Below are positions 20,380-55,934 of a DNA stretch of 58,338 nt, in pieces. The DNA is from Gammaproteobacteria bacterium (GTDB lineage Bacteria; Pseudomonadota; Gammaproteobacteria; Steroidobacterales; Steroidobacteraceae). Every line of letters starts with the position of its first letter. Within the stretch, counting starts at the first letter, position 1. The notes beneath the pieces were generated by a model. That model had not been told where the DNA came from and did not search any database. It was given only the letters and a program-made list of their open reading frames with translations. The translations under genes and the position numbers were made by a program. Where the stretch lies: contig PLEC01000130.1 in the NCBI GenBank assembly GCA_003136935.1, positions 41,050-99,387 on the forward strand, in the 5' to 3' direction.

Positions 20380-20397
20380 AGTCTTCAGGAGAACCCC

Positions 20398-29117: not shown

Positions 29118-30179
29118 TCAGGTCCAGCCCGGCGCGGGCGCCGTGAGGCCGGTGGTTTCCGGCAGTGCGAACAGGCGGTTCATCCACTGCACGGCGCCGC
29201 CGGCCGCGCCCTTGGTGAGATTGTCGATGGCACACAGGACCGCCACGGTGCCGTCCTTTGCGGCCGCCGACAGGTGCGCGTAGTTGCTGGCCACCACGTC
29301 CTTGATCCGTGGCGCCTCTGCCGTGACGCGCACGAACGGAGCATGTGCATAAAAGTCCCTCAAGGCCGCCAGCACGTCCGCCGTATCCACAGCGCGGCTC
29401 GCCGCCGCCTGCACCGCGACGTGGATACCCCGCGCAAAGGGACCGGAGTGGGGCACGAAGGCGAACTGCGCCGCAACGCCGGATGCGGCGCGCGCGCATG
29501 CCGCGACCTCCGGCACATGACGGTGGCTGAGCGCGCCGTAGCTGTAGAGATCACTGTGGCGCAGCGGATGATGCGTGCCCTCCACCGGCTTGCGCCCGGA
29601 GCCGGTACTGCCCGTGACCCCGCTGACGAACAGGGGTTGCCTCACGAGTCCCGCCGCCAGCAGCGGCACGCTCGCGAGCAGGATCGCGGTGGCAAAACAT
29701 CCCGGGTGCGCGATGTGCGGGGTGGTCGCCTCGTTGAGATGCTCCGGCAGCGCGCAGGTGAATTCGCGCATCCGCCCGGGCGCACCATGCGCGTGCGCAT
29801 AAACCTGCGCATATGTTTCCGGCGAGGCGTAGCGGAAATCCGCTGAAATATCGACCACCCGCGGCCGTGTGCCGGCGCGCTGCGCGCCACTGAGCAGAGT
29901 GTCGATCAGGGAAGCGGAGACACCATGTGGGGCTGCGGAGAATACCGCCGACTCGGGCGCTGCGGCGATGAGCGGTGCAACCTCGGCCTGGGACCTGAAG
30001 CGCTCCCCGGGGTATGAGGATGCGAGGTGCGGGAAGGCGCGGGCGATGCTCTCGCCCGGCTGGCTGTCCGACATAACCGCCGCAAGCCTGAAGTTCGGGT
30101 GCGCGGCGATGAGGCGCAGCAGTTCGCCGGCGACGTAGCCGGTGCCGCCGAGGACCACTGTTGGAATCCGCGGGCTCAT
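29118..30179 (-). CDS. argC: N-acetyl-gamma-glutamyl-phosphate reductase
   Basis: 353 aa. GGTGYVAGELLRL NAD-binding motif and active-site HPGCFATA. Confidence 0.9.
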   Translation of the reverse strand: MSPRIPTVVLGGTGYVAGELLRLIAAHPNFRLAAVMSDSQPGESIARAFPHLASSYPGERFRSQAEVAPLIAAAPESAVFSAAPHGVSASLIDTLLSGAQRAGTRPRVVDISADFRYASPETYAQVYAHAHGAPGRMREFTCALPEHLNEATTPHIAHPGCFATAILLASVPLLAAGLVRQPLFVSGVTGSTGSGRKPVEGTHHPLRHSDLYSYGALSHRHVPEVAACARAASGVAAQFAFVPHSGPFARGIHVAVQAAASRAVDTADVLAALRDFYAHAPFVRVTAEAPRIKDVVASNYAHLSAAAKDGTVAVLCAIDNLTKGAAGGAVQWMNRLFALPETTGLTAPAPGWT

Positions 30180-31252
30180 TGCACGGCCGCGGCTTTCAGC
30201 CCCAGCGCTTCAATCACGCAATCTCCGAGCGCCGCGCCGTTGCTCAGGGCGTTGAACGCCGGCACGTTCATCTGCGTGGTGATGATCTCCACGCCCACCT
30301 GGTTGTCGGTCGCCGGCCCGGTCACGACGCACGGCTCAATCGCGAAGCGCTCGCGCAGCAGCTTCACGCCGCCCCAGGCGGCCACCGGATCGTTGGCGGA
30401 CAGGATCACGCCACTTAAGGCGGCGCGGATATCGGGACATTCGAGGATGGCATCGACGCCGTAGGTGCCGAGAATGCCGTCGCCGAGTTCGAACACCACC
30501 ACGTCGGGCTTGCCCGCCGCGAGTGCGCTCAACATGGTGCGCGTGAGCGCCGGACCATTGACGCGCGTGGTCGTGACGACGCCCAGATCGGTGAATATGG
30601 CGCAGCGGCGTGCGCCCGCGTCCTCCATGGCGAGGACGTCGCGGCGCAGGGAAACGCCGGTCGCCTTGAAGGCATCGACGGTGAGTCCGCGGTGGCGCAT
30701 GCGGGCGATGACCGCACAGGCGGCCGCCGTCTTGCCGGCTTCCATGCAGGTGCCGGCGAGCGCCACCACCGGCACGCCACGGGTGTCGAGAGCCGCGTTG
30801 AGGTCGAGCGCTTTCGCACCCACGCGCGCGGGTACGCCGATGCGCTCCCCGAGGTAAGGGAAATTCAGCGCCACGCCCAGCACGCGGCAATCAAAAGGCC
30901 GGCCCTTGTCGGGATTGATGGAATCGCAGATGCCGAGCACGCCGCCGATGTTGAGCATCTGGATGATGTCGCCCGGCTGAATGGTCGCCGGCACGTGGCC
31001 GGAGTAACCAAAGAGCGCGCGGCGGTGACCCAGGGCACCCGCGACCACGTCGCCCTTGCCCACCTTGGCCATGCGGCCGCTGGTGAGCTCGAGGGTGTTG
31101 TAGGTCGACTTGTTGGTGAGCACTTCGACCACCACCACGACGCCTTCTTCCGCGGGAATATCCGTGGCGATGCGTACCTCGTGCGACAGGCCGCAGGCCT
31201 GGGTCACGGAGGCGAGCTTGTCGACGACAACGCTGCGCATGTTGCCGACCAT
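30176..31252 (-). CDS. Uncharacterised two-domain protein with P-loop-like motif, embedded in the arg operon
   Basis: 358 aa starting at MVGNMRSV. Beta-rich N-terminal domain (GVVVVVEVLTNKSTYNTLELTSGRMAKVGKGDVV…). C-terminal alpha/beta domain with VVALAGTCMEAGKTAA (GxxxxGKT-like). It starts 2 nt after the argG stop, and its stop overlaps the argC start by 4 nt. Not an M20 deacetylase, GNAT or ArgJ by eye. Confidence 0.7.
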   Translation of the reverse strand: MVGNMRSVVVDKLASVTQACGLSHEVRIATDIPAEEGVVVVVEVLTNKSTYNTLELTSGRMAKVGKGDVVAGALGHRRALFGYSGHVPATIQPGDIIQMLNIGGVLGICDSINPDKGRPFDCRVLGVALNFPYLGERIGVPARVGAKALDLNAALDTRGVPVVALAGTCMEAGKTAAACAVIARMRHRGLTVDAFKATGVSLRRDVLAMEDAGARRCAIFTDLGVVTTTRVNGPALTRTMLSALAAGKPDVVVFELGDGILGTYGVDAILECPDIRAALSGVILSANDPVAAWGGVKLLRERFAIEPCVVTGPATDNQVGVEIITTQMNVPAFNALSNGAALGDCVIEALGLKAAAVQ

Positions 31253-31254
31253 CG

Positions 31255-32496
31255 TTATGGTTGCTTCGCGCCCGCGCGCTCGCCGGCGCGGGTGTAGAAG
31301 ACGCCCGGCAGCGAGACGATGCGCGAGAACCCCAGCGAGTCGCTCGCCGACCACTCGCCCGCCGCCTCGCCGTACACGCCCCTGGAGGCGGCCATGAGCG
31401 AGTAGGGTGAATCCACGCCCTCGATGAACAGGCCCCCGGTCCGCAGCAGCAGGTGCACGTCGCCTGTGACGCGCGCCTGGGACGACACGAACAGCGCCTC
31501 GATGTCCCGGCACACCGGATCCAGGAGTTGCCCCTCGTGCACGAGATCCCCGTAGGTCTGGGCCACCAGTTCCTTGACGCGCTGCTGGCGGCCGGTGAGC
31601 ACCAGCTTCTCGAGCTCGCGGTGCGCGGTCAGCAGCACATCCGCCGCCGGTGCCTCGAAGGCCACGCGGCCCTTGGTGCCGATGATGGTGTCGCCGAGAT
31701 GAATGCCGCGGCCGATACCGAAGGGTGCGGCGAGCGTCTCGAGCGCCTCGATGATGGCCACGGGCGAAAGCGCCTTGCCGTCGAGTGCGACCGGGCGTCC
31801 CTGGTGGAAGGCCAGCACGTGACGCTGCGCAGCGCGCGGCTGCGCGAAGGCGTCGCGCGTCAGGAGCCAGGCGTCCTCGGGAATGCTGCCGGTGGAAGTG
31901 AGTGTTTCCTTGCCGCCGATGGTCACGCCCCACAGGCCGCGGTTGACCGAGTATTTCGCGCCCGTGGCGGGTACCGGCAGGCCGCGCTGCTGCAGATAGT
32001 CGAGTTCGTCCTGGCGTTTGAAAGCCTGATCCCGCACCGGCGCCAGCACCTTCAGGTCAGGCGCCAGCGTGCGCAACGCCACCTCGAAGCGCACCTGGTC
32101 GTTGCCGGCCGCGGTACAGCCGTGCGCGATCATGTCCGACCCGAGCCGGTGTGCCATGCGGGCGATGGTCTGCGCCTGCATGACGCGCTCGGCGCCGACA
32201 CACAGCGGGTAGAGTCCCCCGCGCCGCACGTTCCCCATGATGAGAAACCGCAGCACCTGCTCGAAGTAGTCGGCGCGCGCATCGACCTGGTGATGCGCGA
32301 TGGCGCCGAGCGCGTGCGCGCGTTGCGCGAGCGCATCCGCCGCGGCCGCATCGATTCCGCCGGTGTCGACCGTGACGGTGATCACCGGGCGCTGCTGCGT
32401 CTCCTTGATCCACGGCACCAGAAACGAAGTGTCGAGACCGCCGGAGTAGGCAAGAACGATGGGCGTGGCGCCGGTGCGCGGCAGCGTGCTGGACAT
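31255..32496 (-). CDS. argG: Argininosuccinate synthase
   Basis: 413 aa starting at MSSTLPRT. AYSGGLDTS ATP-binding motif and downstream ArgG motifs (GCTAAGNDQVRFE). Confidence 0.9.
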   Translation of the reverse strand: MSSTLPRTGATPIVLAYSGGLDTSFLVPWIKETQQRPVITVTVDTGGIDAAAADALAQRAHALGAIAHHQVDARADYFEQVLRFLIMGNVRRGGLYPLCVGAERVMQAQTIARMAHRLGSDMIAHGCTAAGNDQVRFEVALRTLAPDLKVLAPVRDQAFKRQDELDYLQQRGLPVPATGAKYSVNRGLWGVTIGGKETLTSTGSIPEDAWLLTRDAFAQPRAAQRHVLAFHQGRPVALDGKALSPVAIIEALETLAAPFGIGRGIHLGDTIIGTKGRVAFEAPAADVLLTAHRELEKLVLTGRQQRVKELVAQTYGDLVHEGQLLDPVCRDIEALFVSSQARVTGDVHLLLRTGGLFIEGVDSPYSLMAASRGVYGEAAGEWSASDSLGFSRIVSLPGVFYTRAGERAGAKQP

Positions 32497-33024: not shown

Positions 33025-36000
33025 CTACCTCTCGATCGAGTAGACGAGGTCGGCGCCGCGCGCCTGGCCGGCCTCGATCCTCACCGCCCAGTGATCTCCC
33101 AGGCTGTAGCGCAGCTTGATGACGTTGAGCTGCTCGGTGAGGCTGATGCCGTAGCTCACGTACAGCCTGGGGGACAGGTAGCGGCCGAGCACCAGCGAGG
33201 TCTCGTTGGTGATGTCGGATTCGAGGCTCACGTCCTCGATACCCACGCGCGAACCGTACTGCTGCCCCAGCATCGCGGCGGCCTGCCCGGCGGCGTAGTT
33301 GCCGGTGCCGACGCCAGCGCCGACGGTGGTACCGGGGGCGCGGCTTTGCGCCGACTCGAGTGAGCCGCCGGCGAGAATCAGCGACTGGATCTGCGACTGC
33401 GGCAGTGGCGGATCGGAGAAGAACGACAGGTGCGGGGCGAGCAGCGTGCCGCGGACGTCAACTCCCGCGGTCACATCCGGGAATTCCTTTTGGGCGCGCA
33501 GGTTGATTCCCGGGTTGTCGACCGGTCCGCCGGTGAAGATCAGCCGGCCGTACTTGATGTCGAGCTTGCGGCCGTAGGCGCTGTACTTGCCGTCCGCCAC
33601 GGACAACTCGCCGGTGCCTCGCGTGGTGGGGTCGTACCCGCTGCGGATGGTAATGGCGCCAACAATACGCGCCGTCAGCCCCGAGGCATCGACGTTGACG
33701 CGATCGCCGAGGCTGAGCGTGATGGTGCTCACCACCTCGAAGCGCTTGGTGGGATCGTCCACCTCGCTTCCCACGATCACCTCGTCGGGCGAGGTCCGCA
33801 CCGCATTGGTGATGTCGCGGGGGGCGATTTTTGCGAACGGCACCGTGACCTGGCCGGTGACTTCGATTTTGCGCCCGGTGATATTGAAGTCGAGATTTGG
33901 AGAGGCATCGATCTGCGCTTCCGGAACATCGGCGACCCGCAGGTTGGTGCCCTGCAGGTGGAACTTCCCGTAAGGCAGCAGGTTTTTCCACTCGAGGTGT
34001 CCGCTGGTCGTGACGGTGCCGGTGCCGGTGCCGGCGCCGACGTGTGCGCTGCCGTCGAAATCGAGCCCGGCATTGCTCAGGCGTGCGTCAAAGGCAACCT
34101 GGTGCAGGCTGAGGTTGACCTGGTAGTTGTTGATCTCGCCGTCGGTCAGCTTCAGCTCCCCGGTGAGCAACGGTGTGCCAAGCGTGCCGGCCGCGGTCAC
34201 GTTTGCATCCAGGTGTCCCGCGGCGCGGTCCACGTCCGGAAAATACAGCGAAATGAGGCCGAGTTCGGCGGTGTGCGCGTGCAGCTCACCCCTGAGCGGC
34301 ATGTCCTGCCACCGCGCTGTGGTGCGCCGCGCCTCGAACGCGCCCGCGAGTGTCCCGACCTGGCTCTCGATGAGTGCGACCTCGGCGGTGATCGTGGCCG
34401 GCGTGGCGGCTACTGTTACGGTGCCTGAACCGATGTTCGTATGCTCGAGCTTGCGGCTGGCGAGCTTGTGGATGAGTTCGGCGTTGGCGAGGTCCGCGCG
34501 CACGGTTCCGGTCACGGGGATCTGCGCGCCACCGGCGACGTGGGCCAGGGCGTTGACCATGCCCCGGTACTCGACCGCGGGCGTCATGCCGGCGGTGAGG
34601 GTGTTGAGCGGCAGCTGGTTGGCCATGATGGTGCTCGACCAGTGCGCCGGGGTCCAGTCGCCGTCGGCGCAGACGCTGCCGGGCGCGCCCGTGAGACACA
34701 GCCGTTCCACACTCACATGGTCCAGGGAAGCGGTGAGTTCCACCGGACGTTCGAGCGTGAGGTGTAGCGACTCGTTGCCCTGGATGGCGAGTGCGTCGAG
34801 CTGACCATGAAAAAGTCCGTGGGCATAGGAACCGGTCGCGGCGGCGTGCGCCGCAAGTCCGGTGGCGGTCGCCGCGAGCTGCACGTGGTAGTTGACGGGG
34901 AGACCGCTGAGTGTGAATGCCACGGTGTCGGCGGTGCGGCCGCCGAATGTCAGCTTGCGCAGCCGCGCGTCGATCTTCGATTCCTGCAGCGTCGCGGCCG
35001 GATCGAAGTTGATGTCGGCGTCGAAGCCTTCGATCTTGATTCCCTGATAGTCGATACCCCCGCCGTGTGCGGTGGCCACGATCACCGGGTCCGCGAGCGT
35101 TCCGCGCATGCTGCCCGAGGACTTGAGTACCCCGCGGCTGCCCGGGGCGAGCAGGCTCAGGTCCTGGGTGGACACCGCGAAGCGCAGATCCACCTGGTCG
35201 TTGACGCGTCCGTCGAGCGCCAGGCTGGCGCTCCCCAGGCCCACGCGCACATTATCGAAGCCCCAGGTGACACCCGCATGCGTCACCGTGCCAGCGCCGC
35301 TCGCCGCAACGCCGCGCACCTTGCCGGTGAGGCTGCTGAAGCTCGTGGTCAGCGTGCCTGAGGGTTCGAAGCCGCGGCCGCTGGCGGTGAATGTGAAGTT
35401 GACGCTGCCAGGCAGATCCGGTCGCACCCGGCCAGGGTTGATGCCGGTCGCGCGTCCAGTCACCGACCAGGTTTCCGCGGGCGACCACCGCAGCTCGCCG
35501 TTGACGCTCGCATGGCCGTCGAACAGATCCACTTCAGCAGGCTCAAAGGCGAAGCTGTCCTTGCCGAGCGTCCCCGTAAGTTCCACGGGCATCTCCGCCA
35601 GGTCCGCGGCCCGTCCGCGGCCGGTCAGGTGGACCTTGTATGGAAGAATTCCCTGCAGGGTGAAGTCGCCCGCCGCACTGCGTATTGCCACGTCACGGCC
35701 GACCAGTGGCCAGCGGAAGTTGTCCCAGCTGCCGGTGAGATTCAGCCGCGGCCCGTTGTCGACGATGCCGAAAGTGCCGGCAGCAATGGCGTGCGCGCCG
35801 GAGGCGTTGTGACGGACTTCCATGCGGGTGGCGGTCAGCACCTTATCGGCGTAATGACCGGCAAACTGCGCGGCGAACTCGCCCGCGCGCAGCCCGGCTG
35901 GATTCACCGGACCGTGCCCTTCGAAGCCGTTGGCGTCGCCCGACACGGCGAGGTGTCCGGTGATGTTGCCCAGCAGCGGGGCGGCAATTCCCCAGGGGGT

Positions 36001-36786
36001 CAGATCGAACTCGCGCACGACGGCATCGCCCACCCAGTGCCAGCGGTTGGTCAGATCGAGCATCTGGCCGGTGAAGTCGGCGCTGAAGGGGCTGACGCTG
36101 TGGCCGACAATGTTGAGCACGTTCAGATCGCCGCGGCCGCTGCCGGACAGCGTGTAGGCAGGCTGGCCCGGTGGTTGCCAGTCAACGCGCCCCTTGACGT
36201 CCATCCCCAGCGGATCCTCCGCCCGCAACTCGCCGATGCCGCTGATGTGCGCATCCTCGAGCCACCCGTCGGCCTGGAAGAAGCGGATGACACTGTGACG
36301 GATGACCGCGGCGCCGCTGAGATTGCTCGCCTGCAGGCGCACGCCGTTGAAGACCGTGAGCAGCGCATGGTCGACTTGCGCCTGCTCGATGCTGATCAGG
36401 AGCCAGCGCGGCAGGAACAGCGGCGGCGAGGGTGTCGCTGGATGGACGCGGCGCTTCACCTCGATGAGGGCGTTGCCCACGTGACCGTCGTGGACGCGAA
36501 TGGTCTGCAGCAGCAGGGGCGCGAGCGCGACGTGCCCCTCGATGTCCGTGAACGTCAGGTGCACCAGCTCGTGATCGATCTCGACCCGCTCGACGTGTAC
36601 GCCGGAGGCGAGCGTGCCGGTGACGCCGCTGATGTCGAGCTGCACACCGCCGATGTGGTGCGGAACGTGCCGCGCGACGAACTGCAGGCCGCTCTCGGTG
36701 TGCACCGCCGACCAGATGATCACCGCCGGCACGGCAATGACCAGGAAGACCAGCACGCAGGCGAGGATGAGGAGCAGGCGGCGCAT
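33025..36786 (-). CDS. tamB: Translocation and assembly module subunit TamB
   Basis: 1253 aa. N-terminal signal-anchor (LLLILACVLVFLVIAVPAVIIW). Very long beta-rich body. C-terminal DUF490 region (…LNVIKLRYSLGDHWAVRIEAG…). Follows tamA. Confidence 0.85.
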   Translation of the reverse strand: MRRLLLILACVLVFLVIAVPAVIIWSAVHTESGLQFVARHVPHHIGGVQLDISGVTGTLASGVHVERVEIDHELVHLTFTDIEGHVALAPLLLQTIRVHDGHVGNALIEVKRRVHPATPSPPLFLPRWLLISIEQAQVDHALLTVFNGVRLQASNLSGAAVIRHSVIRFFQADGWLEDAHISGIGELRAEDPLGMDVKGRVDWQPPGQPAYTLSGSGRGDLNVLNIVGHSVSPFSADFTGQMLDLTNRWHWVGDAVVREFDLTPWGIAAPLLGNITGHLAVSGDANGFEGHGPVNPAGLRAGEFAAQFAGHYADKVLTATRMEVRHNASGAHAIAAGTFGIVDNGPRLNLTGSWDNFRWPLVGRDVAIRSAAGDFTLQGILPYKVHLTGRGRAADLAEMPVELTGTLGKDSFAFEPAEVDLFDGHASVNGELRWSPAETWSVTGRATGINPGRVRPDLPGSVNFTFTASGRGFEPSGTLTTSFSSLTGKVRGVAASGAGTVTHAGVTWGFDNVRVGLGSASLALDGRVNDQVDLRFAVSTQDLSLLAPGSRGVLKSSGSMRGTLADPVIVATAHGGGIDYQGIKIEGFDADINFDPAATLQESKIDARLRKLTFGGRTADTVAFTLSGLPVNYHVQLAATATGLAAHAAATGSYAHGLFHGQLDALAIQGNESLHLTLERPVELTASLDHVSVERLCLTGAPGSVCADGDWTPAHWSSTIMANQLPLNTLTAGMTPAVEYRGMVNALAHVAGGAQIPVTGTVRADLANAELIHKLASRKLEHTNIGSGTVTVAATPATITAEVALIESQVGTLAGAFEARRTTARWQDMPLRGELHAHTAELGLISLYFPDVDRAAGHLDANVTAAGTLGTPLLTGELKLTDGEINNYQVNLSLHQVAFDARLSNAGLDFDGSAHVGAGTGTGTVTTSGHLEWKNLLPYGKFHLQGTNLRVADVPEAQIDASPNLDFNITGRKIEVTGQVTVPFAKIAPRDITNAVRTSPDEVIVGSEVDDPTKRFEVVSTITLSLGDRVNVDASGLTARIVGAITIRSGYDPTTRGTGELSVADGKYSAYGRKLDIKYGRLIFTGGPVDNPGINLRAQKEFPDVTAGVDVRGTLLAPHLSFFSDPPLPQSQIQSLILAGGSLESAQSRAPGTTVGAGVGTGNYAAGQAAAMLGQQYGSRVGIEDVSLESDITNETSLVLGRYLSPRLYVSYGISLTEQLNVIKLRYSLGDHWAVRIEAGQARGADLVYSIER

Positions 36787-36798
36787 GGCTTGGAGCGC

Positions 36799-38640
36799 TT
36801 ACAACTTCGGCGAGAAGTTGATGTGCAGGCGCGGTCCCGCGCCTGGCATGTTGAGCGGCTGCGCCACGTCGATGCCGACGGTCATTACCGGCAGGCGCAC
36901 CCGCAGGCCCACGCCGAATGAGTAGTACAGCTGCGTGCCGAAGTGATCGAAGGCGTTGCCGTAATCGACGAAGGTCGCAATGCCCAAGTTCTTCGGCAGG
37001 TCACGCACCACCTCCACGGTGCCAGTGATCAGGTCCTTGCCGCCGACCTTGATGAAGTCATTTGGGACTGGCTGACAGGTGCCGTTCGCGGTGAGGATGA
37101 GCGCGCCGCTGGTTGGGTTACGCGCACACACCGCCTCGAGGGGCGACAACTCGTTGTAGTAAAAACCGCGCACACTGTTGTCACCGCCGGCGAAAAAGCG
37201 ATAAATCGCCGGCAGGCTGCTGAAGCCCGACACGAGACTCGCGCCGAGCTCGTCACGCAGTAGGAGGTGCCATTTGGGGGCGATCTGGAATACGTGTTCG
37301 GCCTGGGCGTGCAGCTGGATGAAGTTGGAGCTCGACCCCAGGGCGGAATTCGAGCCGCGCAACTCGGCAAAGAATGGGTGTTCGAACAGCGCTTCGCCGT
37401 AATAGCCCTTGGGCACCGAACCGATGTCGATCTCCGGCACCAGCAGGCTGTCGGACTGCGTGCTGTTGATGGTTTCGCTGGTGGTGTGCACGGCATTGAG
37501 CGCCCCCACGTACTGCCAGCCGTCCCTGACCGTCGTGATCTGCGGCCCCAAGGCCTGGGTGTAGGCGGTGACGTCGGCGAGGGTCTGCTGCTCGATCTGG
37601 GCGCGCATGGCGAAACTCGCCACCGCCGGATCGCCGATCGGTATGGCGTAGCGGGCCTGCACGTTGTAGCGGGTGACCTGCGCGAACTGCAGCTCGAGGC
37701 TGAAGCTATGACCGCTGGTGTTGAGCAGCGGGTCCGTGAACCCGAGGGTGACACGCGCCCCGGTATCGGTGGCATAGCCGGGCGCGAACGAGTAGTTGTT
37801 CTTGCGGCGCCGGTCACCATGAATGTCCACGGGCACGGTGTGCGCCTTGCGGTCCGGATCGCCGGGCTGCACCTCGAGGTTGATGAAGAAACGCGCGTCG
37901 TCGAGCGCGAACTGGGTGTGCAGCACCTGCGTCAGATCGAACAGGTCGCCCTCGCGGTAGCGCAGGTAGCGGCGCACCAGCGAGTCCTTGATGGCGTCCT
38001 GCTTGATGGTGGTCTTGCCGAACCGATAGCGCTCGCCGGTGTCAAGCTCCAGCGCGATGTTCGCGTTGTGGTTCGGCGGGTCGACCACCAGCTCGTTGCG
38101 CACCATCTTGGCGTCGAAGTAGCCGTAGGTCGCCGCGGTGCGCTGCAGGTCGGTCTTGATGGCCTCGTAATCCGCATGGTTCAGCCGATCGCCGGCGTGC
38201 GGCAGATGGCCCAGGATCCGCGTGAACAACGGGTCGGTTTCACCCGGACCATCGACGCGCACGTCGATGTGCTCGATGAGCACCGGTGGTCCCAGGGTGA
38301 TGTTGACCACCACCCGCCAGTCATCGTGGCCCAGGTCGGTGACCGTCGAGTCCACCTTGGGCTCGTAGTAGCCGAAGGGCTTCAAGGCCGCCTGCACCTC
38401 GCGTTCGACGCGCTCGTGCAGCCGCTCGACCGTGTCGGCGTTGAGCTCCGCGCCGCCCTTGCGGTAGCGCTCGAAGCTCAGGTAGGCAAGAACGTTGGTG
38501 CGCACCAGCTCGTCGACGCCGCGCACCTCGACGTTGACTCCGGCCGCGTACGCCAGCTGGCACACGATGAGACACAGCGCCACCGCCGGGGCCCGTCGGT
38601 GCCATCGACAAGCCCGGGGTAAGGGGTTGTGCTGCGCCAT
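36799..38640 (-). CDS. tamA: Omp85-family outer-membrane protein TamA
   Basis: 613 aa. Signal peptide. POTRA repeats (VEVRGVDELVRTNVLAYLS…). C-terminal bacterial surface antigen barrel (FFAGGDNSVRGF…). Confidence 0.85.
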   Translation of the reverse strand: MAQHNPLPRACRWHRRAPAVALCLIVCQLAYAAGVNVEVRGVDELVRTNVLAYLSFERYRKGGAELNADTVERLHERVEREVQAALKPFGYYEPKVDSTVTDLGHDDWRVVVNITLGPPVLIEHIDVRVDGPGETDPLFTRILGHLPHAGDRLNHADYEAIKTDLQRTAATYGYFDAKMVRNELVVDPPNHNANIALELDTGERYRFGKTTIKQDAIKDSLVRRYLRYREGDLFDLTQVLHTQFALDDARFFINLEVQPGDPDRKAHTVPVDIHGDRRRKNNYSFAPGYATDTGARVTLGFTDPLLNTSGHSFSLELQFAQVTRYNVQARYAIPIGDPAVASFAMRAQIEQQTLADVTAYTQALGPQITTVRDGWQYVGALNAVHTTSETINSTQSDSLLVPEIDIGSVPKGYYGEALFEHPFFAELRGSNSALGSSSNFIQLHAQAEHVFQIAPKWHLLLRDELGASLVSGFSSLPAIYRFFAGGDNSVRGFYYNELSPLEAVCARNPTSGALILTANGTCQPVPNDFIKVGGKDLITGTVEVVRDLPKNLGIATFVDYGNAFDHFGTQLYYSFGVGLRVRLPVMTVGIDVAQPLNMPGAGPRLHINFSPKL

Positions 38641-38795
38641 CTCGAGGTGTGGATGAAAAACTAGGGGATTCTAGAGCCTGACCGGCGCCCCTGCTCGCCG
38701 CGTTGTTATTTGAGAGTCGCGTATGGTTGCCGGGGTTCCGCGCCGCCTGCCTTGGCGTGCACCGCCAGGGCACCAGGCCTGCGGTCACCGATGGA

Positions 38796-39578
38796 CTATG
38801 GCCACTCGCCCGCATTCAGCCTGAATTCAGTTTCGCCGGCCGGCTCGCCGCGCGCATCGAAGCGCCGCTCCCCGATATAGACCCCGCCGTCATTGTGCAT
38901 CAGCAGGACGCTTGAACAACGCGTCCCGTAGGTCGGGTGCATGACGAACGGCGCGGACAGGACCTGTTCCAGCTCGCGTGGCAGCCCGGACTCATGCAGC
39001 CCCACGTCCCCGGCAGACTGGGTCCGGTCGCTGAGCAGTTCGAACAGCGGCGCGGCGGATTGCGCGGCGGGGTCTGCCAGCCACGTCTCGAACCCGCGGC
39101 GTACCCGCAGCAGTTTCGGCCACGGCGTGTCGAGCAATTCGTTCGAGAGCCCATAAACGCCCGCGTCCAGGGCCCGGGCGAACGGCGCGGCGCGGTTCGA
39201 GCCGTACCAGAGCGATTCGTCATCGGCAAGCAGCAGGTTGAAGCCGGAGTAACCGGGGGCCTCATGCTCGAGCCCGGCAAAGAACTCCCCGGCGCCGTGC
39301 GTGCCGGTGAGAAAACGGGGGATCAGGCTGCCGCGCGAGGGAGCGCCGGCCTGCGGGCGCTGCAGCTCGCGAAAGTTCGTCACCACGCCGAAACGCCGCG
39401 CCCGGTCGAGTCCGAGCCAGGCGCCGCCGGCGCGCAGATCGCGCCCCGCGAGCACCCCGCCGTCCGGCGGCCAGGGCGCGAGCGGCGCCGCCGGTCGCTC
39501 GTGAAACTCATCGCGATTGGCGGCGACCACCAGGCGGTAATGCGGATGGGTTCGCCACGCGAGCACCAGCAGGCACAT
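38796..39578 (-). CDS. NRDE family protein (DUF833/TANGO2-like)
   Basis: MCLLVLAWRTHPHYRLVVAANRDEFHERP contains the N-terminal Cys and the NRDE signature. Confidence 0.8.
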   Translation of the reverse strand: MCLLVLAWRTHPHYRLVVAANRDEFHERPAAPLAPWPPDGGVLAGRDLRAGGAWLGLDRARRFGVVTNFRELQRPQAGAPSRGSLIPRFLTGTHGAGEFFAGLEHEAPGYSGFNLLLADDESLWYGSNRAAPFARALDAGVYGLSNELLDTPWPKLLRVRRGFETWLADPAAQSAAPLFELLSDRTQSAGDVGLHESGLPRELEQVLSAPFVMHPTYGTRCSSVLLMHNDGGVYIGERRFDARGEPAGETEFRLNAGEWP

Positions 39579-39584
39579 GCGCCG

Positions 39585-40487
39585 TTACGCCTTAGTGCCG
39601 TCCAGCCAACCGCAGATCAGCCGCCAGGAAATTGACTGTGTGGGCGGCGCCAGCACCTCTCCTGAGCGCACCTGTTCGCGGGTAACCCAGCGAACCTCCT
39701 CCAACTCAGCACCGACGCGCACCGCGGCCCCGGCGGGGGCGCTGGCGTAAAAGCCCAGCATGATGGAGGAGGGGAACGGCCAGGGCTGCGAGGAGTCGTA
39801 GCGCATGCTGGTGACGATGACGCCGGTTTCTTCAAGTACCTCGCGCGCCAGCGCGTCTTCGAGGCTCTCGCCGGGCTCGACGAAGCCGGCGATGGTCGAG
39901 TAGCGCCGCGCGGGCCAGCTTGCCTGCCGGCCGAGCAGCGCCCGCTCGCCATCACTCACCAGCACAATAATGGCCGGGTCCAGTCGCGGGAAGTAATCCT
40001 GCGCACAGGCTTCGTTCGTGCAGCGCAGGCAATGGCCGGCGCTCACGGGGAGCGTGGCGGACGCGCATACACCACAGTAGAGGTGGCGTGCGTGCCAGAT
40101 CGACAGGGCGCGTGCGTAAGCGAGGAGTCCCGCTTCGTCGGGCGGCAGCTGCGCTGTCAGCGGTCGCAGTTCCTGGAAACCTGAGTCCGGCGGCGCGCTC
40201 GCCACCGCCGTCGCCGGCAGCTCGATGAGCACGCAACGCGCGCCGTGAAACCAGCCCAGGAGCGTCGTGCAGGATGCGGCTGCGGATTTCACCAGTGGCG
40301 CATCACCGCTGAGGAACGCGATTCGCGGCGCCGCGCCCGCCCTGATCAGCTGCGCGGTGCCGTGTGCGATGAGGTACAGAGTCGCCGCGTCGGCGTGGGC
40401 TGCGGCCAGCCACTGCGGATCCTCGCGGGCTTCCGCGCGCCGCTCGAGGTAGGGACCGGCGAAGAAGTTAGGTCGGGCGTGATCCAT
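39585..40487 (-). CDS. nudC: NADH pyrophosphatase NudC
   Basis: Zn-ribbon CGVC…CLRC. Nudix box GFVEPGESLEDALAREVLEETGV. SQPWPFPSS NudC motif. Start chosen at MDHARPNFF (40487). Confidence 0.85.
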   Translation of the reverse strand: MDHARPNFFAGPYLERRAEAREDPQWLAAAHADAATLYLIAHGTAQLIRAGAAPRIAFLSGDAPLVKSAAASCTTLLGWFHGARCVLIELPATAVASAPPDSGFQELRPLTAQLPPDEAGLLAYARALSIWHARHLYCGVCASATLPVSAGHCLRCTNEACAQDYFPRLDPAIIVLVSDGERALLGRQASWPARRYSTIAGFVEPGESLEDALAREVLEETGVIVTSMRYDSSQPWPFPSSIMLGFYASAPAGAAVRVGAELEEVRWVTREQVRSGEVLAPPTQSISWRLICGWLDGTKA

Positions 40488-40587: not shown

Positions 40588-41133
40588 CTAATGCGCCTGC
40601 AGCGGGCTCGCACAATGGTGGCAGCGCTGGGCGCGCAGCGTGAAGCGCTCGGTCACCATGAGACTGCCGCAGCCGCCGCAGTCCCCCAGACGCAGCTGAT
40701 CCCCGCGCGCCAGCGCGGTGGCGAGAAACACCGCGTGCTCGAAGGTGATCTGCGAGGAGGGCAGGAGCATGCGGTAAGCCTCGAAGGCCTGGCACAGCTG
40801 CTCACCGCGCGCGAGCGCCGGCGCCCCCGCCGCCGCGTCCGGAGCCGCCGGCACCGCGCCGAGCAGCGACAGCACGCTGGCGAGCACGGCGGTCTCGTGT
40901 TGCGAGCGTTGCGAGCGCGTGAAGTAACCGACCTGGTGCGGTGACTTGCCGCGATGCCGCGGCAGAAAGCGGCTCGCCTGGCTCATGTAGGTACGGTAGA
41001 GCTTGCGGATGCGGTCATCCGACAGGCCGGTCCAGGTGCGAATGGTCTGGGTGCGCGCTTCGTGGCGCAGAAAGCGCAGGGCGAGCTCCATCCGCAGCCG
41101 CTCGCCGTTGTAACGGTCGTCCGAGATGCGCAT
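40588..41133 (-). CDS. FlhC-like zinc-ribbon transcriptional activator subunit
   Basis: 181 aa from the ATG at 41133, preceded by AAGGAG. N-terminal helical region (LRMELALRFL…LSDDRIRKLYRTY) and C-terminal C-x2-C-x17-C-x2-C (DCGGCGSLMV…RCHHCASP) parallel E. coli FlhC (…LSRGRLIKLYKEL…, C-x2-C-x16-C-x2-C). Confidence 0.7.
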   Translation of the reverse strand: MRISDDRYNGERLRMELALRFLRHEARTQTIRTWTGLSDDRIRKLYRTYMSQASRFLPRHRGKSPHQVGYFTRSQRSQHETAVLASVLSLLGAVPAAPDAAAGAPALARGEQLCQAFEAYRMLLPSSQITFEHAVFLATALARGDQLRLGDCGGCGSLMVTERFTLRAQRCHHCASPLQAH

Positions 41134-41163
41134 ATGTGCTCCTTCCGGTTGGCTAACCGACAT

Positions 41164-41218
41164 TTTGGTAAAAAATTCCCAAAACACAAGCAGAGAAATT
41201 TGGTAAAAAATCACCAAA
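41164..41218. promoter_or_regulatory. Two 20-bp palindromic sites TTTGG-N10-CCAAA in the AT-rich divergent intergenic region
   Basis: Site 1 at 41164-41183 is TTTGGTAAAAAATTCCCAAA. Site 2 at 41199-41218 is TTTGGTAAAAAATCACCAAA. Their starts are 35 bp apart, and they share the TTTGGTAAAAAAT core. Confidence 0.6.
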
Positions 41219-41277
41219 CTAAAAAATAGCACTGCTGGTCGGATTTGCCTGGATTGAAGGTCGCGGGAGGAGATGCC

Positions 41278-41961
41278 ATGTTGCTGCGCTGCGGTATCGA
41301 TGGGGCGGAGTTAAGCGAAAGCGCGCTGTTGGCGCCCGGGTGGTTGCGGCCGGAGACGCTGGAATCGCTGTTGGAACTGAACGAGATGGCCTTCGCGCTG
41401 CTGGCCGCGCAGGCCGCCGAGCGCTGCACGCCGGCCACCGCGCTGGTCACGGCGGTAACGAGCGTGTGGCGCCGGCTGGACGCGGTGGCACGGCGTCGCG
41501 CCGCCGCCTGCCCGTACCTGCTGCTGGATGCCGGCTTCGCCGACACCCAGCGCTGGGGCATGCCGGCAGCGCATGTCAGTGATGTGCGCGAGAGTGCGCC
41601 GCCATTCTTCACCGTGCCGGCGGCGCTCGAGGCCTCGCGTCTGGTGTTCACCTACGCCTGGCACCTTGCCCGCACCCAGCCTGCCGCTGCGCGGCTGCTG
41701 CTCGGCATGCGCGCGCCGTGCACCGCGGCAATCAGCCAGTGCAGCCTGCGCCAGGTATTCGCGCTCGGCGAGAGTCACGCCGGGTGGCTGCGTCCGCGCT
41801 GGAGTGCGCGCCCGGAGGTGTGGCAGGAACTGCTGGTCGCCGCAGCTTCCGGCGAGGACACGGCGCTGGAGCGCGCCCGGCTGCATGGTCTGACGCTGTT
41901 GGCGGCCGAATCTCGCGTAACCGCGTCGCAGCACACGCACCGGCTTGCAAGTCCTGTGTGA
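41278..41961 (+). CDS. Hypothetical helical protein, possibly two tandem FlhD-like modules
   Basis: 227 aa from the ATG at 41278, preceded by GGGAGGAG. Segments LLELNEMAFALLAAQA…LLLDAGF and YAWHLARTQPAAARLLLGMRAPCTAAISQCSLRQVFALGESHAGWLRPRW resemble E. coli FlhD (YDINLSYLLLAQRL…[36 protein letters not shown]). That similarity is judged from memory. Confidence 0.55.
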   Translation: MLLRCGIDGAELSESALLAPGWLRPETLESLLELNEMAFALLAAQAAERCTPATALVTAVTSVWRRLDAVARRRAAACPYLLLDAGFADTQRWGMPAAHVSDVRESAPPFFTVPAALEASRLVFTYAWHLARTQPAAARLLLGMRAPCTAAISQCSLRQVFALGESHAGWLRPRWSARPEVWQELLVAAASGEDTALERARLHGLTLLAAESRVTASQHTHRLASPV

Positions 41962-43764: not shown

Positions 43765-44697
43765 TCAGTAGATGGCGATTTCGCGCCGCCCGCCCGAGTC
43801 GCGGGCCCCGCGAAACATGCCTTCGCTGCTGAAATCCATCACCACCTGCCCGTCCTGGCCCACGGCGATGAGGCCGCCGTCGCCGCCCATACCGGCCAGA
43901 ATCTCGTGCAGCATTTCGCGCACCGCCTGCTGCAGCGTCAAGCCGCGGTACTGCACGGCGGCGCAGACGTGGTGGGCCGCCACGGCGCGAATGAAGTACT
44001 CGCCGTGCCCGGTGGCGGACACCGCGCATACACCGTTCTTTGCATAAGTGCCGGCGCCGATGATGGGTGAATCCCCGACCCGCCCGGGGCGCTTGTTGGT
44101 CATGCCGCCGGTGGAGGTGGCGGCGGCGAGGTTGCCGGCACCATCGAGGGCGACCGCACCCACCGTACCTTTGGAGGTGGGCAGAAGCTCCGACATGCGC
44201 TCGCCGCGCTGCTCGGACTCGAGCTGCGCCAACCGCTCGGCGGTGCGGAAGTAGTGGTTGGGAACGAGCGTGAACTGCTCTTCCAGCGCGAATTCCTCGG
44301 CGCCCGCGCCGACCAGCAGCACGTGGCGCGACTTCTCCATCACGCGCCGCGCGAGGTCTATGGGATTTTTCACGTGACGCACGGAGGCGACCGCGCCGGC
44401 GCGCAGCTGCCGACCGTCCATGATGGCGGCATCGAGTTCGGCCGCGCCGTCGCGTGTGAGCGCGGCTCCATGGCCGGCGTTGAACAAGGGATCGTCTTCG
44501 AGGACGCGCACCGCGGCCGCCACGGCATCCAGACTGCTGTCCCCGCCCGCCAGCACCGCATAGCCGCGGTCGAGCGCCGCCGCCAGGCCGGCGCGATAGA
44601 GCTGCTCACGCTCGGCGGACAGCGCGGCGCGCGGCATCGCCCCGGCGCCGCCGTGAATGGCGATGGCGTACATGGGTCTGGTTCCTGCGCTGCTCAT
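43765..44697 (-). CDS. Isoaspartyl peptidase/L-asparaginase (Ntn hydrolase), cytoplasmic paralogue
   Basis: 310 aa. No signal peptide. Autocleavage/nucleophile context GTVGAVALD and STGGMTNKRPGRVGDSPIIGAG. Confidence 0.85.
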   Translation of the reverse strand: MSSAGTRPMYAIAIHGGAGAMPRAALSAEREQLYRAGLAAALDRGYAVLAGGDSSLDAVAAAVRVLEDDPLFNAGHGAALTRDGAAELDAAIMDGRQLRAGAVASVRHVKNPIDLARRVMEKSRHVLLVGAGAEEFALEEQFTLVPNHYFRTAERLAQLESEQRGERMSELLPTSKGTVGAVALDGAGNLAAATSTGGMTNKRPGRVGDSPIIGAGTYAKNGVCAVSATGHGEYFIRAVAAHHVCAAVQYRGLTLQQAVREMLHEILAGMGGDGGLIAVGQDGQVVMDFSSEGMFRGARDSGGRREIAIY

Positions 44698-45701
44698 GGC
44701 GCGTCGCGGAATAGGGCGACTTCCTGCCGGCCGTGGATATCGCGCGAGGCGCGGAACATACCGGAGGTGTTGAAATCCATGACGATGTCGCCGTGTGGAT
44801 CGATCGCGATCACCCCACCCGTGTCGGGCGCCGCGTGCGCCAGCTTCTCATCGATGACCTCGTGCACGGCCTGCGCAAGCGTCAGGTGCCGGTAGTGCAC
44901 CAGCGCGCAGATGTCATAGGCCACCAGCTCGCGCATGAAGTACTCGCCCCAGCCGGTGCCCGAGACGGCGCACGACTCGTTGTTGGCGTAGGTGCCGGCA
45001 CCGATGATGGGCGAGTCCCCCACGCGCCCGACGTGCTTGTTGGTGAGTCCGCCGGTGGAGGTGGCGGCGGCGAGGTTGCCGGCGCGATCGAGTGCCACGG
45101 CGCCCACCGTGCCCTTGGGTAGCGCGTTCGGCGGCGCCGCGGCGCGTTCGCGTGCCGCGCGCTGCACCTCCTGCAGCTCGTGCTCACGCTGCGGGGTGCG
45201 GAAGTATTCCGGTGCCACCAGCACCACGCCCTGTTCCAGTGCGAACTCCTCGGCGCCTTCGGCTACCAGCAGCACGTGCGGGCTCTTATCCATCACCAGG
45301 CGCGCAAGATCGATCGGGTTCTTGACGTGGCGCACGGCGGCCACCGCCCCCGCACGCGGTCCGTTGCCATCCATGATGGCGGCATCGAGTTCCGCATCGC
45401 CGTGCGCGTCGAGCACCGCGCCGCGGCCAGCATTGAATTGCGGATCATCCTCCATGGTGCGCACCGCGGCCGCCACGGCATCCAGGCTGGTGCCGCCGCG
45501 CTCGAGGATCGCGTAGCCGGCGTTGAGCGCCGCCGCAAGTCCCGCGCGGTAGGAGGCTTCACGTTCGGGGGTCATTTTCGCGCGGTCCATGGTGCCGGCG
45601 CCGCCGTGGATGGCGATGGCCAGCGGGTGCGGCTCGGCGGCCAGGGCCGGCATGGCGAGCGATGACCAACACAAAAGCGCGATGATTTTCAGGCGCGACA
45701 T
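44694..45701 (-). CDS. Isoaspartyl peptidase/L-asparaginase (Ntn hydrolase), secreted paralogue
   Basis: Start at MSRLKIIALLCWSSLAMPALAAEP (signal peptide). GTVGAVALD and STGGLTNKHVGRVGDSPIIGAG motifs. Its stop overlaps the start of the downstream paralogue by 4 nt. Confidence 0.85.
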   Translation of the reverse strand: MSRLKIIALLCWSSLAMPALAAEPHPLAIAIHGGAGTMDRAKMTPEREASYRAGLAAALNAGYAILERGGTSLDAVAAAVRTMEDDPQFNAGRGAVLDAHGDAELDAAIMDGNGPRAGAVAAVRHVKNPIDLARLVMDKSPHVLLVAEGAEEFALEQGVVLVAPEYFRTPQREHELQEVQRAARERAAAPPNALPKGTVGAVALDRAGNLAAATSTGGLTNKHVGRVGDSPIIGAGTYANNESCAVSGTGWGEYFMRELVAYDICALVHYRHLTLAQAVHEVIDEKLAHAAPDTGGVIAIDPHGDIVMDFNTSGMFRASRDIHGRQEVALFRDAP

Positions 45702-45798
45702 ACTTTCCCCCCAGCGGCTATGATCGAAGCCAACCCGCACGGGCGCTCAAAAAGCGCCTCGCGGGGCTCTCCAGACAAACCGTGCGGTAAATACTAAG

Positions 45799-54209: not shown

Positions 54210-55934
54210 TCAGGCCTTCGCGAACCGCGCCTTCACTTCTTCCATCAACGTCTTGAAGCGGGGCTCGGCACGGATCGGATCGAAGTCCGGGTCGGCCTCC
54301 ATCCAGCTCATCATGCTCGGTGTCAGCCTCGGCGCGATACCGGCGAGAGTCTCCAGCGTCAGATCGACTTCTCCCAGCGAGGACATCGCGCAAGCGAGGT
54401 TGTAATGCAGATTAGTGTTGTCAGGATCGACGAGACGGGCCCGTGTCGCCCACTCTTTGGCGCGCTCCTTTTCCCCCAGCGTTACCAGCATGGCAACGCC
54501 CAAACCGATCGCGCGGCTATGGCCGGGCTCGGCCACGACGACCCTTTCGATGCGATCGAGAGCCCGGCGCGCAGCGCTGCGCATACGCTCCGCATCGCCC
54601 TTGGCCTTGTAGGACTGCGAGACGAAAGTCGCCGCCGTAAAATCCGTTTCCATCCCCGCGGCCGCCGCCTCGAAATGGCCGATCGCGTCGTCGTAGCGGC
54701 GCAGGCCGAGGCAGCACAGGCCGGCGATTTTATTGGCGATGTATGAACCGGGCTCCAGGCGCAGCGCGTTCTGGCAGGAGGCCAGCCCTTCCAGGTAGCG
54801 TCCCTTGCTGCGCTGCGCTGCGCCCATCGCGGCGTGCGCGTCGGCGAGATTGGGGTCGAGCCGCAGCGCCGTCGCCGCGGCGCGCTCGCCCGCGTCTGAG
54901 TCGCCTTGCCAGAACCTGTTCCACTGCGCCAGCGCCATGGTCGCCCACGCCTGCGCGTAGTTCGGATCGATCTCGATGACCCGATTGCAGATGCGATCGA
55001 CGATTACATCGTTTCTTTCATTGTCCAGAAGCCAGAATTGCCGCGCCATCAGGTACAGCTTGTACGCCTCAGGATGGGTCGTGCCGCGCTGCTCGAGCGC
55101 CTGCCGTTCTCCGGGGAGCAGCGTCAGTTTCAGTGCGGCGACGATCGCCTTGGAGATCTCGTCCTGCAGCGCGAATATGTCATTCAGGTCGCGGTCGTAA
55201 CGCTCGCCCCACAGCTGCGAGTCGTTGGCGGCGCCGATCAGTTGGGCGGTGATGCGCACCCGGGCGCCGGACTTGCGCACGCTGCCGACGAGCACGTAGG
55301 CCGCCTTCGTCTGCCGCGCGATCTGCGCCACGTCGGCGGCCGCGCTCTTGAAGGAAAAGGCGGTATTGCGCGACACGATCGAGAGTGCCGAGACCTTGCC
55401 GAGGTCGGTGATGATGTCCTCGGTGATGCCGTCGCTGAAATACTCCTGCTCCGGATCACCGCTCATGTTGGCGAACGGCAACACGCATACCGTGACGGCG
55501 GGGCGCTTGTCTTTCGCGGTCTGCGCGGCAGTTTTTCCCACCGCCCGTTTCAGTTTCGCTTCCAGAGCGATGCGCAGCGCTTTGAAAGGCGCACTGTCGC
55601 CGTTGCCCGCCCAGCCATCGAGTTCGATGGTGTGGATCGCGCGCACGTCGATCGGCAAGCGCGCATTCTCGATGCGTACCGGCACCAGCACGCCGCGATC
55701 GGCGGCGTCGCGCGCTTCGCCCTTCACCCATCGCGATTCCACCGAGGCCGGGCTCCAGACGACGACGACTGCGCCGGCGCTCTCGAGTTCGGCGCCGATC
55801 AGCCTGTCGAATTCATCGCCCGGGGTGATTTCCGGATCCCACCAGACCGACCAGCCCTGCGCCTCAAGCGCGGTCACCAGGGGTGCGACGGTAGCCTTGT
55901 CGGTCCGGGAATAGGAAACGAAGATATCGGCCAT
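54210..55934 (-). CDS. TIR domain / TolB_N-like module / TPR repeat protein
   Basis: 574 aa. N-terminal TIR (DIFVSYSRTDKATVAPLV…VVVWSPASVESRWVKGE). Central module typical of cyclase/BTAD-associated sensors (CVLPFANMSGDPEQEYFSDGITEDIITDL…AAYVLVGSVRKSGARVRITAQL). C-terminal TPR repeats. Confidence 0.8.
   Translation of the reverse strand: MADIFVSYSRTDKATVAPLVTALEAQGWSVWWDPEITPGDEFDRLIGAELESAGAVVVVWSPASVESRWVKGEARDAADRGVLVPVRIENARLPIDVRAIHTIELDGWAGNGDSAPFKALRIALEAKLKRAVGKTAAQTAKDKRPAVTVCVLPFANMSGDPEQEYFSDGITEDIITDLGKVSALSIVSRNTAFSFKSAAADVAQIARQTKAAYVLVGSVRKSGARVRITAQLIGAANDSQLWGERYDRDLNDIFALQDEISKAIVAALKLTLLPGERQALEQRGTTHPEAYKLYLMARQFWLLDNERNDVIVDRICNRVIEIDPNYAQAWATMALAQWNRFWQGDSDAGERAAATALRLDPNLADAHAAMGAAQRSKGRYLEGLASCQNALRLEPGSYIANKIAGLCCLGLRRYDDAIGHFEAAAAGMETDFTAATFVSQSYKAKGDAERMRSAARRALDRIERVVVAEPGHSRAIGLGVAMLVTLGEKERAKEWATRARLVDPDNTNLHYNLACAMSSLGEVDLTLETLAGIAPRLTPSMMSWMEADPDFDPIRAEPRFKTLMEEVKARFAKA

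Follow-up and report, generated by a model that had tools for sequence, protein, structure and literature searches.

In FlhD4C2, the master regulator of flagella, each FlhC binds an FlhD dimer (structure 2AVU). The related mobile-element proteins AcaD and SetD are single FlhD-like proteins, encoded in an operon with their C partner. The FlhDC-like regulators in the literature searched are either flagellar master regulators or activators of mobile elements (AcaCD, SetCD, the SGI1 pair and BisDC), and a fused FlhD-FlhD protein was not found in that literature. AcaC is unstable without AcaD, and the AcaCD box (GCCCTAAAAGGGC) is an inverted repeat with an A/T-rich centre (PMC4605294). BisDC of the Pseudomonas element ICEclc is a two-component activator regarded as an analogue of FlhDC; it requires both parts and shows positive autoregulation. 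In BisD a ParB-like CTP clamp is joined to an activator domain that is all-helical and has no clear similarity to FlhD, and BisC has no zinc site (bioRxiv 10.1101/2024.09.16.613209). Here we describe a divergent gene pair on contig PLEC01000130.1 of an uncultured gammaproteobacterium, contained in a stretch of 58,338 nucleotides (the window). One gene encodes a protein of 181 aa that resembles FlhC (C-like), the other a protein of 227 aa that appears to hold two FlhD-like domains (D-like).

On balance we favour reading the pair as a self-contained two-gene module of the FlhDC class, in which the D subunit is a single chain and the D-C heteromer is autoregulated via two palindromes. One D-like chain would take the place of the FlhD homodimer that is bound by each FlhC in FlhD4C2, and the active factor would be a D-C heteromer, probably (DD)2C2. 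This complex would control both of its own genes by binding, within the divergent promoter between them, a pair of palindromic operators (TTTGG-N10-CCAAA) spaced 35 bp apart. By read-through from the C-like gene it may also control the nudC-(TANGO2)-tamA-tamB string. The features concerned are listed in Table 1.

Table 1. Positions in the window of the gene pair, its domains and putative operators, and the genes downstream of the C-like gene.
Feature	Position	Strand	Description
C-like gene	40588..41133	-	181 aa; distant FlhC homologue
Cys4 zinc ribbon of C-like protein	40612..40680	-	C152, C155, C171, C174
Divergent promoter region	41134..41277		144 bp, 44% GC; AT-richest stretch of the window (at the 60-200 bp scale); conserved across 69 loci
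Putative operator site 1	41163..41184		TTTTGG-N10-CCAAAA palindrome; ~30 bp upstream of C-like start; position weight matrix score 42.1
Putative operator site 2	41199..41218		TTTGG-N10-CCAAA palindrome; centre 35 bp from site 1; position weight matrix score 38.0
D-like gene	41278..41961	+	227 aa from ATG (MLLRCG...); two putative FlhD-like domains
N-terminal FlhD-like domain (putative)	41344..41556	+	~residues 23-93
C-terminal FlhD-like domain (putative)	41614..41919	+	~residues 113-214; LG motif kept
Co-directional genes downstream of C-like gene	33025..40487	-	possible promoter output (inferred); Pfam
nudC	39585-40487	-	Pfam
TANGO2/NRDE	38796-39578	-	Pfam
tamA	36799-38640	-	Pfam
tamB	33025-36786	-	Pfam

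Several comparisons support the C-like protein as a distant homologue of FlhC with an intact Cys4 zinc site. Its sole Pfam match is FlhC (PF05280, E = 0.0017, profile positions 12-166 of 173), and 36 of 46 homologues match this family (best E = 9e-6) and no other. When a profile of these 46 sequences is compared with all PDB sequences, FlhC chains come out on top (8j56_C with E = 0.002, then 2avu_E). The alignment comprises two collinear stretches, namely the N-terminal helices (LSDDRIRKLY versus LSRDRLIRLY) and the zinc ribbon. Profile-profile comparison by hhalign with an alignment of five FlhC sequences (E. coli, Proteus, Cupriavidus, Ralstonia and a Caballeronia plasmid) yields a probability of 84% (P = 7e-6, 161 columns) and a score of 41.2, while 40 column-shuffled controls score at most 24.7. 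The same comparison with FlhD gives no match (0.18% probability), and a PHROGs search returned only a weak match to a family of unknown function. The original prediction, made from the sequence, had called this minus-strand protein FlhC-like, which these searches bear out. It had also described an FlhC layout with LSDDRIRKLY and a C-x2-C-x17-C-x2-C ribbon; layout and motif are as described, and the spacing has to be corrected to C-x2-C-x15-C-x2-C. The four cysteines are invariant in 46 of 46 homologues and align with cysteines of FlhC sequences in both the PDB profile search and hhalign. The start codon is the ATG at MRISDD..., where the homologues in the alignment begin as well. A longer ORF of 214 aa with a GTG start was rejected: it would cross the conserved operator, and the homologues start at MRISDD.

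For the D-like protein, profile comparisons support a single chain with two diverged FlhD-like domains. When 122 diverse full-length family members, collected by a hidden Markov model (HMM) search, were aligned and compared with the PDB, the significant matches were to FlhD only: 8j56_A (E = 1.2e-6, 31 bits, FlhD residues 18-101), 1g8e_A (E = 0.0015) and 5hxg_B (E = 0.002), all of them on the C-terminal half. The two halves (N-half, residues 20-105; C-half, residues 106-215) were also compared separately with an alignment of 11 FlhD sequences. By hhalign the N-half matches FlhD 2-88 over 82 columns (90%, P = 1.6e-6, score 35.5) and the C-half FlhD 7-102 over 96 columns (94.5%, P = 8.3e-8, score 44.0). 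The best of 60 column-shuffled FlhD alignments reaches 16.7 with the N-half and 14.8 with the C-half. The reversed FlhD alignment, in which helical periodicity is kept, scores 8.8 and 10.6, and the probabilities against FlhC are 0.26% and 1.5%, respectively. HMMER profiles of the halves find FlhD with E = 2e-4 (N-half) and E = 1e-8 (C-half) at a PDB-sized search space. With 10,846 high-GC ORF segments from the same genomes as decoys, the best non-family scores are 10.0 bits for the N-half and 15.5 bits for the C-half; the N-half HMM scores FlhD sequences at 23-25 bits. Conversely, an FlhD HMM detects the C-half in 122 of 122 members and the N-half, at an independent E-value below 0.01, in 3 of 122 (for example P0356 with 1.6e-5 over FlhD 7-85). 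Pfam FlhD matches occur in a few D-like homologues and are weak (E 0.03-0.2, 12-15 bits versus a cut-off of 27), always with residues ~129-170 on profile positions 21-62. Weak matches to DUF2857 and DDE_Tnp_1_assoc in a few homologues were judged to be noise.

The register of these alignments is the one proposed originally from two segments that each resembled the FlhD core, and both segments are indeed present. ELNE...LLA.QA and CPYLLLDAGF of the N-half pair with D-I-N-L-S-Y-L-L-L-A-Q-R and QLVCHFRF of FlhD, and YAWHLAR...LLLGM...WLRPRW of the C-half pairs with those same elements. N35 falls on the Asn of NLSYL and G143, in the C-terminal domain, on the Gly of FRLG. The N-terminal domain is without the FRLG helix and the C-terminal tail of FlhD. 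An AlphaFold2 (AF2) model of the full protein (predicted local distance difference test, pLDDT, 81.8; predicted template modelling score 0.79) has collinear secondary structure in both halves: a long helix, short helices, a short strand and a helix. Homology and stoichiometry together suggest that the chain may act as a single-chain mimic of the FlhD dimer. The start codon is backed by homologues that begin at the same position (MLL.C). Residues 1-6 (41278-41295) follow the pattern M-L-L-x-C-E/G, with M1, L2, L3 and C5 nearly invariant in close homologues; this peptide is modelled as disordered by AF2 and could be a degron or a regulatory tag.

The C-like and D-like genes are inherited together. 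Scanning species-representative genomes yielded 72 orthologous loci of 20 kb each, all from uncultured metagenome-assembled genomes (MAGs) labelled Steroidobacteraceae or Gammaproteobacteria, save for one Burkholderiales, one Pseudomonadota and two labelled proteobacterium. The C-like gene is divergent from and adjacent to the D-like gene in 69 of them. Together with the remote subfamilies described below, this bears out the co-occurrence that a survey across genomes had been proposed to find. Of the three exceptions, one ends at a contig end, and in two the D-like gene is preceded by another gene, which in L009 (31-2559) is of the kinase/LanC-like lanthipeptide synthetase kind and in L041 (2071-3162) resembles a SagB-type nitroreductase. 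The latter two are related MAG contigs that retain an operator-like site, and may be rearrangements or chimeric assemblies. Median identity is 73% for the C-like protein, which is among the better conserved of the neighbourhood genes, and 58% for the D-like protein, which is the least conserved.

Beyond these loci the D-like family is large, with 829 close homologues and, by HMM search, at least 1,193 representatives of 50%-identity clusters (773 at E <= 1e-10), almost all of them of full length. In 121 of the 150 best of the 1,193 clusters the protein is 190-270 aa long and the profile is matched nearly end to end; these 121 full-length representatives fall into 43 groups at ~38% identity. 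The full-length matches imply that the two-domain architecture is ancestral to the family. All remote members with enough surrounding DNA have a divergent C-like partner, with E-values of 8.6e-78 (L207), 4e-46 (L213) and 1e-39 (L214), and with fragments in L205 and L211. The family is old, widespread and unannotated, and it is fixed in its chromosomal position in uncultured Steroidobacteraceae-like Gammaproteobacteria.

The spacer between the two genes is the GC minimum of the window at each scale from 60 to 200 bp (25% at 41169-41228, versus 67% for the window). The earlier description of the intergenic region as the most AT-rich spot consequently holds at these scales and fails at 500 bp. 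Site 2 (consensus aAATTTGGT.aAAAAt..CCAAATtc) hardly varies across 68 of 69 orthologous spacers, despite a D-like identity of only ~58%. Site 1 is found in most orthologous loci and is weaker or absent in those that diverge most. Neither the window nor the 72 loci contain the pattern TTTGG-N10-CCAAA anywhere else. With a symmetrised position weight matrix, the next best position in the window after the two sites scores -4.1, and in 1.15 Mb of loci every match of at least 18 lies at a C/D promoter. A metagenome scan with TTTGGTAAAAAATNNCCAAA returned 80 loci, 73 of low GC (chance-type) and 7 of high GC; three of these seven are the same C/D promoter, and L136 looked unrelated.

The palindromes also follow the module into other contexts. 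The pair is separated by a gene insertion in L215 and, in L031, by an inversion that places the C-like-nudC-NRDE-tamAB block ~9 kb away; in both cases a site is retained before each gene (in L031 at 775-870 and 9839-10001). Related palindromes are found at remote members, including L214 (TTTGATATTTTTATAGCAAA), which is linked to a type IV secretion system (T4SS). The palindromes are therefore best explained as the module's own binding sites, which would imply autoregulation. In L057 (3371-3815) the C/D spacer measures 445 bp, the whole operator block being duplicated to give four TTTGG-N10-CCAAA sites versus two. A sigma-70 promoter scan found nothing in the intergenic region. The presumed C-like leader contains, between site 1 and the ribosome-binding site, a short hairpin rich in GC (CGGTTGGCTAACCG, 41146-41159), and a similar sequence is seen in the closest loci (L002-L004).

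Downstream of the C-like gene, the median gap between its stop codon and the start of nudC is 120 nt; the gap is at most 150 nt in 39 of 61 loci and exceeds 500 nt in 15. No terminator-like site was found between the two genes in the window. Read-through control of nudC-tamAB is plausible on this gene arrangement. In one MAG (L014, 6948-9304) nudC and the C-like gene are separated by a lineage-specific insertion that encodes a GGDEF-EAL protein and a membrane protein.

Several results weigh against the autoregulated two-gene module. The C-like protein scores 18.6 bits against PF05280, under the curated cut-off of 27 (and 17.9 bits against NCBIfam NF009365, where the cut-off is 216), and the 227-aa protein of the window has no match at all in Pfam or NCBIfam, including FlhD (PF05247). 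No similarity is detectable between the N-half and the C-half (hhalign probability below 1%, whether the alignments are close or diverse). There is hence no direct sign of a duplication, and the tandem claim rests on each half matching FlhD. Foldseek searches of the PDB gave a best E of 0.37 for the full AF2 model (TetR and G-protein-coupled receptor noise), with FlhD absent among the 50 matches listed, and 7 matches for a model of the N-half (pLDDT 70), all with E >= 6 and none to FlhD. This miss is weak counter-evidence, because the two chains of FlhD are intertwined in the dimer and the search treats library entries as single chains. A second operator copy that would define a regulon was found neither in the window, nor in the 1.15 Mb of loci, nor near the T4SS genes of L214, and the palindromes could belong to another transcription factor. 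Finally, insertions break the link between the C-like gene and nudC in 15 of 61 loci, so that co-transcription is not universal.

The missing Pfam match, the Foldseek result, the undetectable internal repeat and the N-half without its FRLG helix would also fit a different explanation, namely that the 227-aa protein is not a functional equivalent of FlhD. Its similarity would then stem from remote ancestry or from convergence of helical patterns, the protein could for example be an anti-activator or a chaperone of the FlhC-like protein, and the palindromes would be bound by the FlhC-like protein alone or by another factor. We regard this as quite improbable, as both halves match FlhD collinearly over the full core and significantly by two independent methods, and neither the reversed profiles, nor the decoys of the same composition, nor the cross-comparisons with FlhC reproduce the signal. 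Strict co-inheritance with an FlhC homologue is moreover what is predicted for a partner of the FlhD type.

The genomic context bears on the origin and the role of the module. The neighbours named in the original prediction are identified by Pfam as NudC (NUDIX and Zn ribbon), TANGO2/NRDE and an isochorismatase. Further neighbours are TamA, TamB, a DJ-1/PfpI-AraC regulator, two Asparaginase_2 genes and a pyruvate carboxylase. The remaining large ORFs scanned are of a housekeeping kind (TonB receptor, LytTR two-component system, AmtB, ComM, PolA and arginine genes), and the 29 large ORFs scanned, a subset of the ORFs in the window, contain no flagellar, chemotaxis or conjugation/integrative and conjugative element (ICE) genes. 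Most of the 72 loci retain the order tamB-tamA-(TANGO2)-nudC-C-like<>D-like, as do, without TANGO2, the remote subfamilies L207, L215 and L217, whose D-like proteins are ~30-39% identical to that of the window. The flank beyond the D-like gene varies (isochorismatase, ABC transporter, glyoxalase or peptidase M13); in L008 the D-like and isochorismatase genes are separated by a lineage-specific insertion, a gene for a CsgG-like lipoprotein. Other remote members are found in a different setting. The pair of L214 adjoins TrbC-VirB3-VirB4, TrbC follows the D-like gene in L211, the pair of L213 lies 5 kb from a phage-type integrase and a CsrA gene, and that of L216 is placed among toxin-antitoxin genes and small ORFs. 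The earlier statement that the pair has no flagellar or ICE context accordingly stands for the window and does not extend to the family, where remote members adjoin T4SS or integrase genes. Since divergent copies adjoin conjugative T4SS genes or lie near an integrase, its ties are probably to the mobile-element branch of FlhDC-type activators and not to flagellar control.

Polar flagella in Gammaproteobacteria are normally under regulators of the FleQ/FlrA type, which already counts against seeing the pair as a very divergent flagellar master regulator FlhDC of this lineage, encoded apart from the flagellar genes. Such a role would agree with the homology of both proteins to FlhC and FlhD and with the motility of some cultured Steroidobacteraceae by a polar flagellum (PMC7966939), and the context evidence covers the window and the orthologous loci, not the whole genome. 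We nevertheless consider it very improbable. Apart from the absence of flagellar and chemotaxis genes among the scanned ORFs, no flagellar family is among the window's neighbour families that recur in the 72 loci, the similarity to FlhDC is far under the family thresholds, the operator is found only at the pair's own promoter, and the remote relatives keep company with T4SS genes or an integrase. No cultured Steroidobacter genome is among the 72 loci, for which the scan patterns were narrow.

The T4SS, integrase and toxin-antitoxin neighbours of L214, L211, L213 and L216 are, on the other hand, what would be expected of a domesticated mobile-element activator (AcaCD/SetCD-like) with an unlinked chromosomal regulon, for which the tamBA-nudC neighbourhood would be inherited gene order and not output. 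The insertions that cut the C-like gene off from nudC agree with this, as does the fact that the known non-flagellar FlhDC-like activators are all on mobile elements. We think it unlikely, with a real chance of being correct: unlike the opposite flank, tamB-tamA-nudC-C-like is kept at ~30% D-like identity, the large ORFs scanned in the window gave no sign of an integrase, a T4SS or a repeat boundary near the pair, and 72,556 sequenced plasmids held no homologue when searched by tblastn with the C-like protein and a T4SS-linked D-like protein. A bolder version of the favoured module, in which a fused FlhD pseudo-dimer and an FlhC-like zinc protein were captured from conjugative elements, became fixed in the core genome of a large uncultured soil lineage, are autoregulated there via a palindromic operator dedicated to them and now drive an envelope/NAD-turnover operon nudC-TANGO2-tamA-tamB, seems to us a tentative and rather doubtful possibility. 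If true, it would represent the first FlhDC-type regulator that controls neither flagella nor DNA transfer.

Some further features of the window concern other genes. A protein of 574 aa (54210-55934, minus strand) has an N-terminal TIR_2 domain followed by TPR repeats and may be an NADase/defence-type or signalling protein, in housekeeping surroundings. The two neighbouring Asparaginase_2 (isoaspartyl peptidase) paralogues (43765-45740, minus strand) are kept in tandem in most orthologous loci, and the second appears to have a signal-peptide-like N-terminus. A DUF1800 and DUF1501 gene pair (18922-21651, plus strand) adjoins polA, and two large ORFs on the minus strand (30176-31933, 585 aa, and 12189-13001, 270 aa) are without a Pfam match at E <= 1e-5.

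The module would represent a third setting for FlhDC-type heteromeric activators, since it has a fixed place among housekeeping genes in abundant, uncultured Gammaproteobacteria of soil. With two FlhD-like domains fused, the D:C stoichiometry would be set and the D domains would be free to diverge, in line with an N domain that has lost one helix and the tail. Given the size of the family, a profile would name thousands of 'hypothetical proteins'. The near-invariant operator offers a direct handle for finding the regulon in complete genomes, and linkage with nudC and the TAM machinery hints at a connection, open to experiment, between this regulator class and envelope biogenesis.

Judged from the sequences, the pair appears to form a branch of the FlhDC class that is new and without annotation, and the architecture of its D subunit is new as well. 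It is not filed as FlhC/FlhD proper, because it falls under the curated Pfam and NCBIfam thresholds and has neither the operon arrangement nor the flagellar context. With FlhD4C2 of Enterobacterales and Burkholderiales (PDB 2AVU, 8J56, 1G8E) it shares the form of a two-protein module. FlhC and the C-like protein have in common an N-terminal helical part with L-S-x-x-R-[IL]-x-K-L-Y and a C-terminal Cys4 zinc ribbon, and the D-like domains align across the whole FlhD core. FlhD, however, has ~105-116 aa and homodimerises, whereas the D-like protein is one chain of 227 aa with, by these alignments, two diverged FlhD-like domains; flhD-flhC is a flagellar operon, whereas the present genes are divergent and have no flagellar genes nearby; and the FlhD4C2 box is unlike the present pair of 20-bp palindromes. 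An unfused counterpart of the double-FlhD arrangement is seen on the Burkholderia multivorans plasmid NZ_CP143553.1 (L081, 754-1419), where two separate small genes annotated as FlhD (75 and 77 aa) are direct neighbours immediately upstream of the bcsD/bcsP cellulose genes, without flhC.

AcaCD, SetCD and FlhDC(SGI1), of IncA/C plasmids, SXT/R391 ICEs and SGI1, are likewise of the FlhDC type and non-flagellar. The inverted repeat of AcaCD with its A/T-rich centre is of the same general kind as the present palindromes, and some remote members of the present family also adjoin conjugative T4SS genes. AcaCD and SetCD are nevertheless carried on conjugative elements, whereas the present pair occupies a fixed chromosomal housekeeping locus and has no homologue in the plasmids searched. 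BisDC is similar in that its D part is also a fusion protein. BisD carries a ParB-like domain, whereas the present D-like fusion would join FlhD-like to FlhD-like and has no ParB or other Pfam domain, and in contrast to BisC, with no zinc site, the present C-like protein keeps its Cys4 site.

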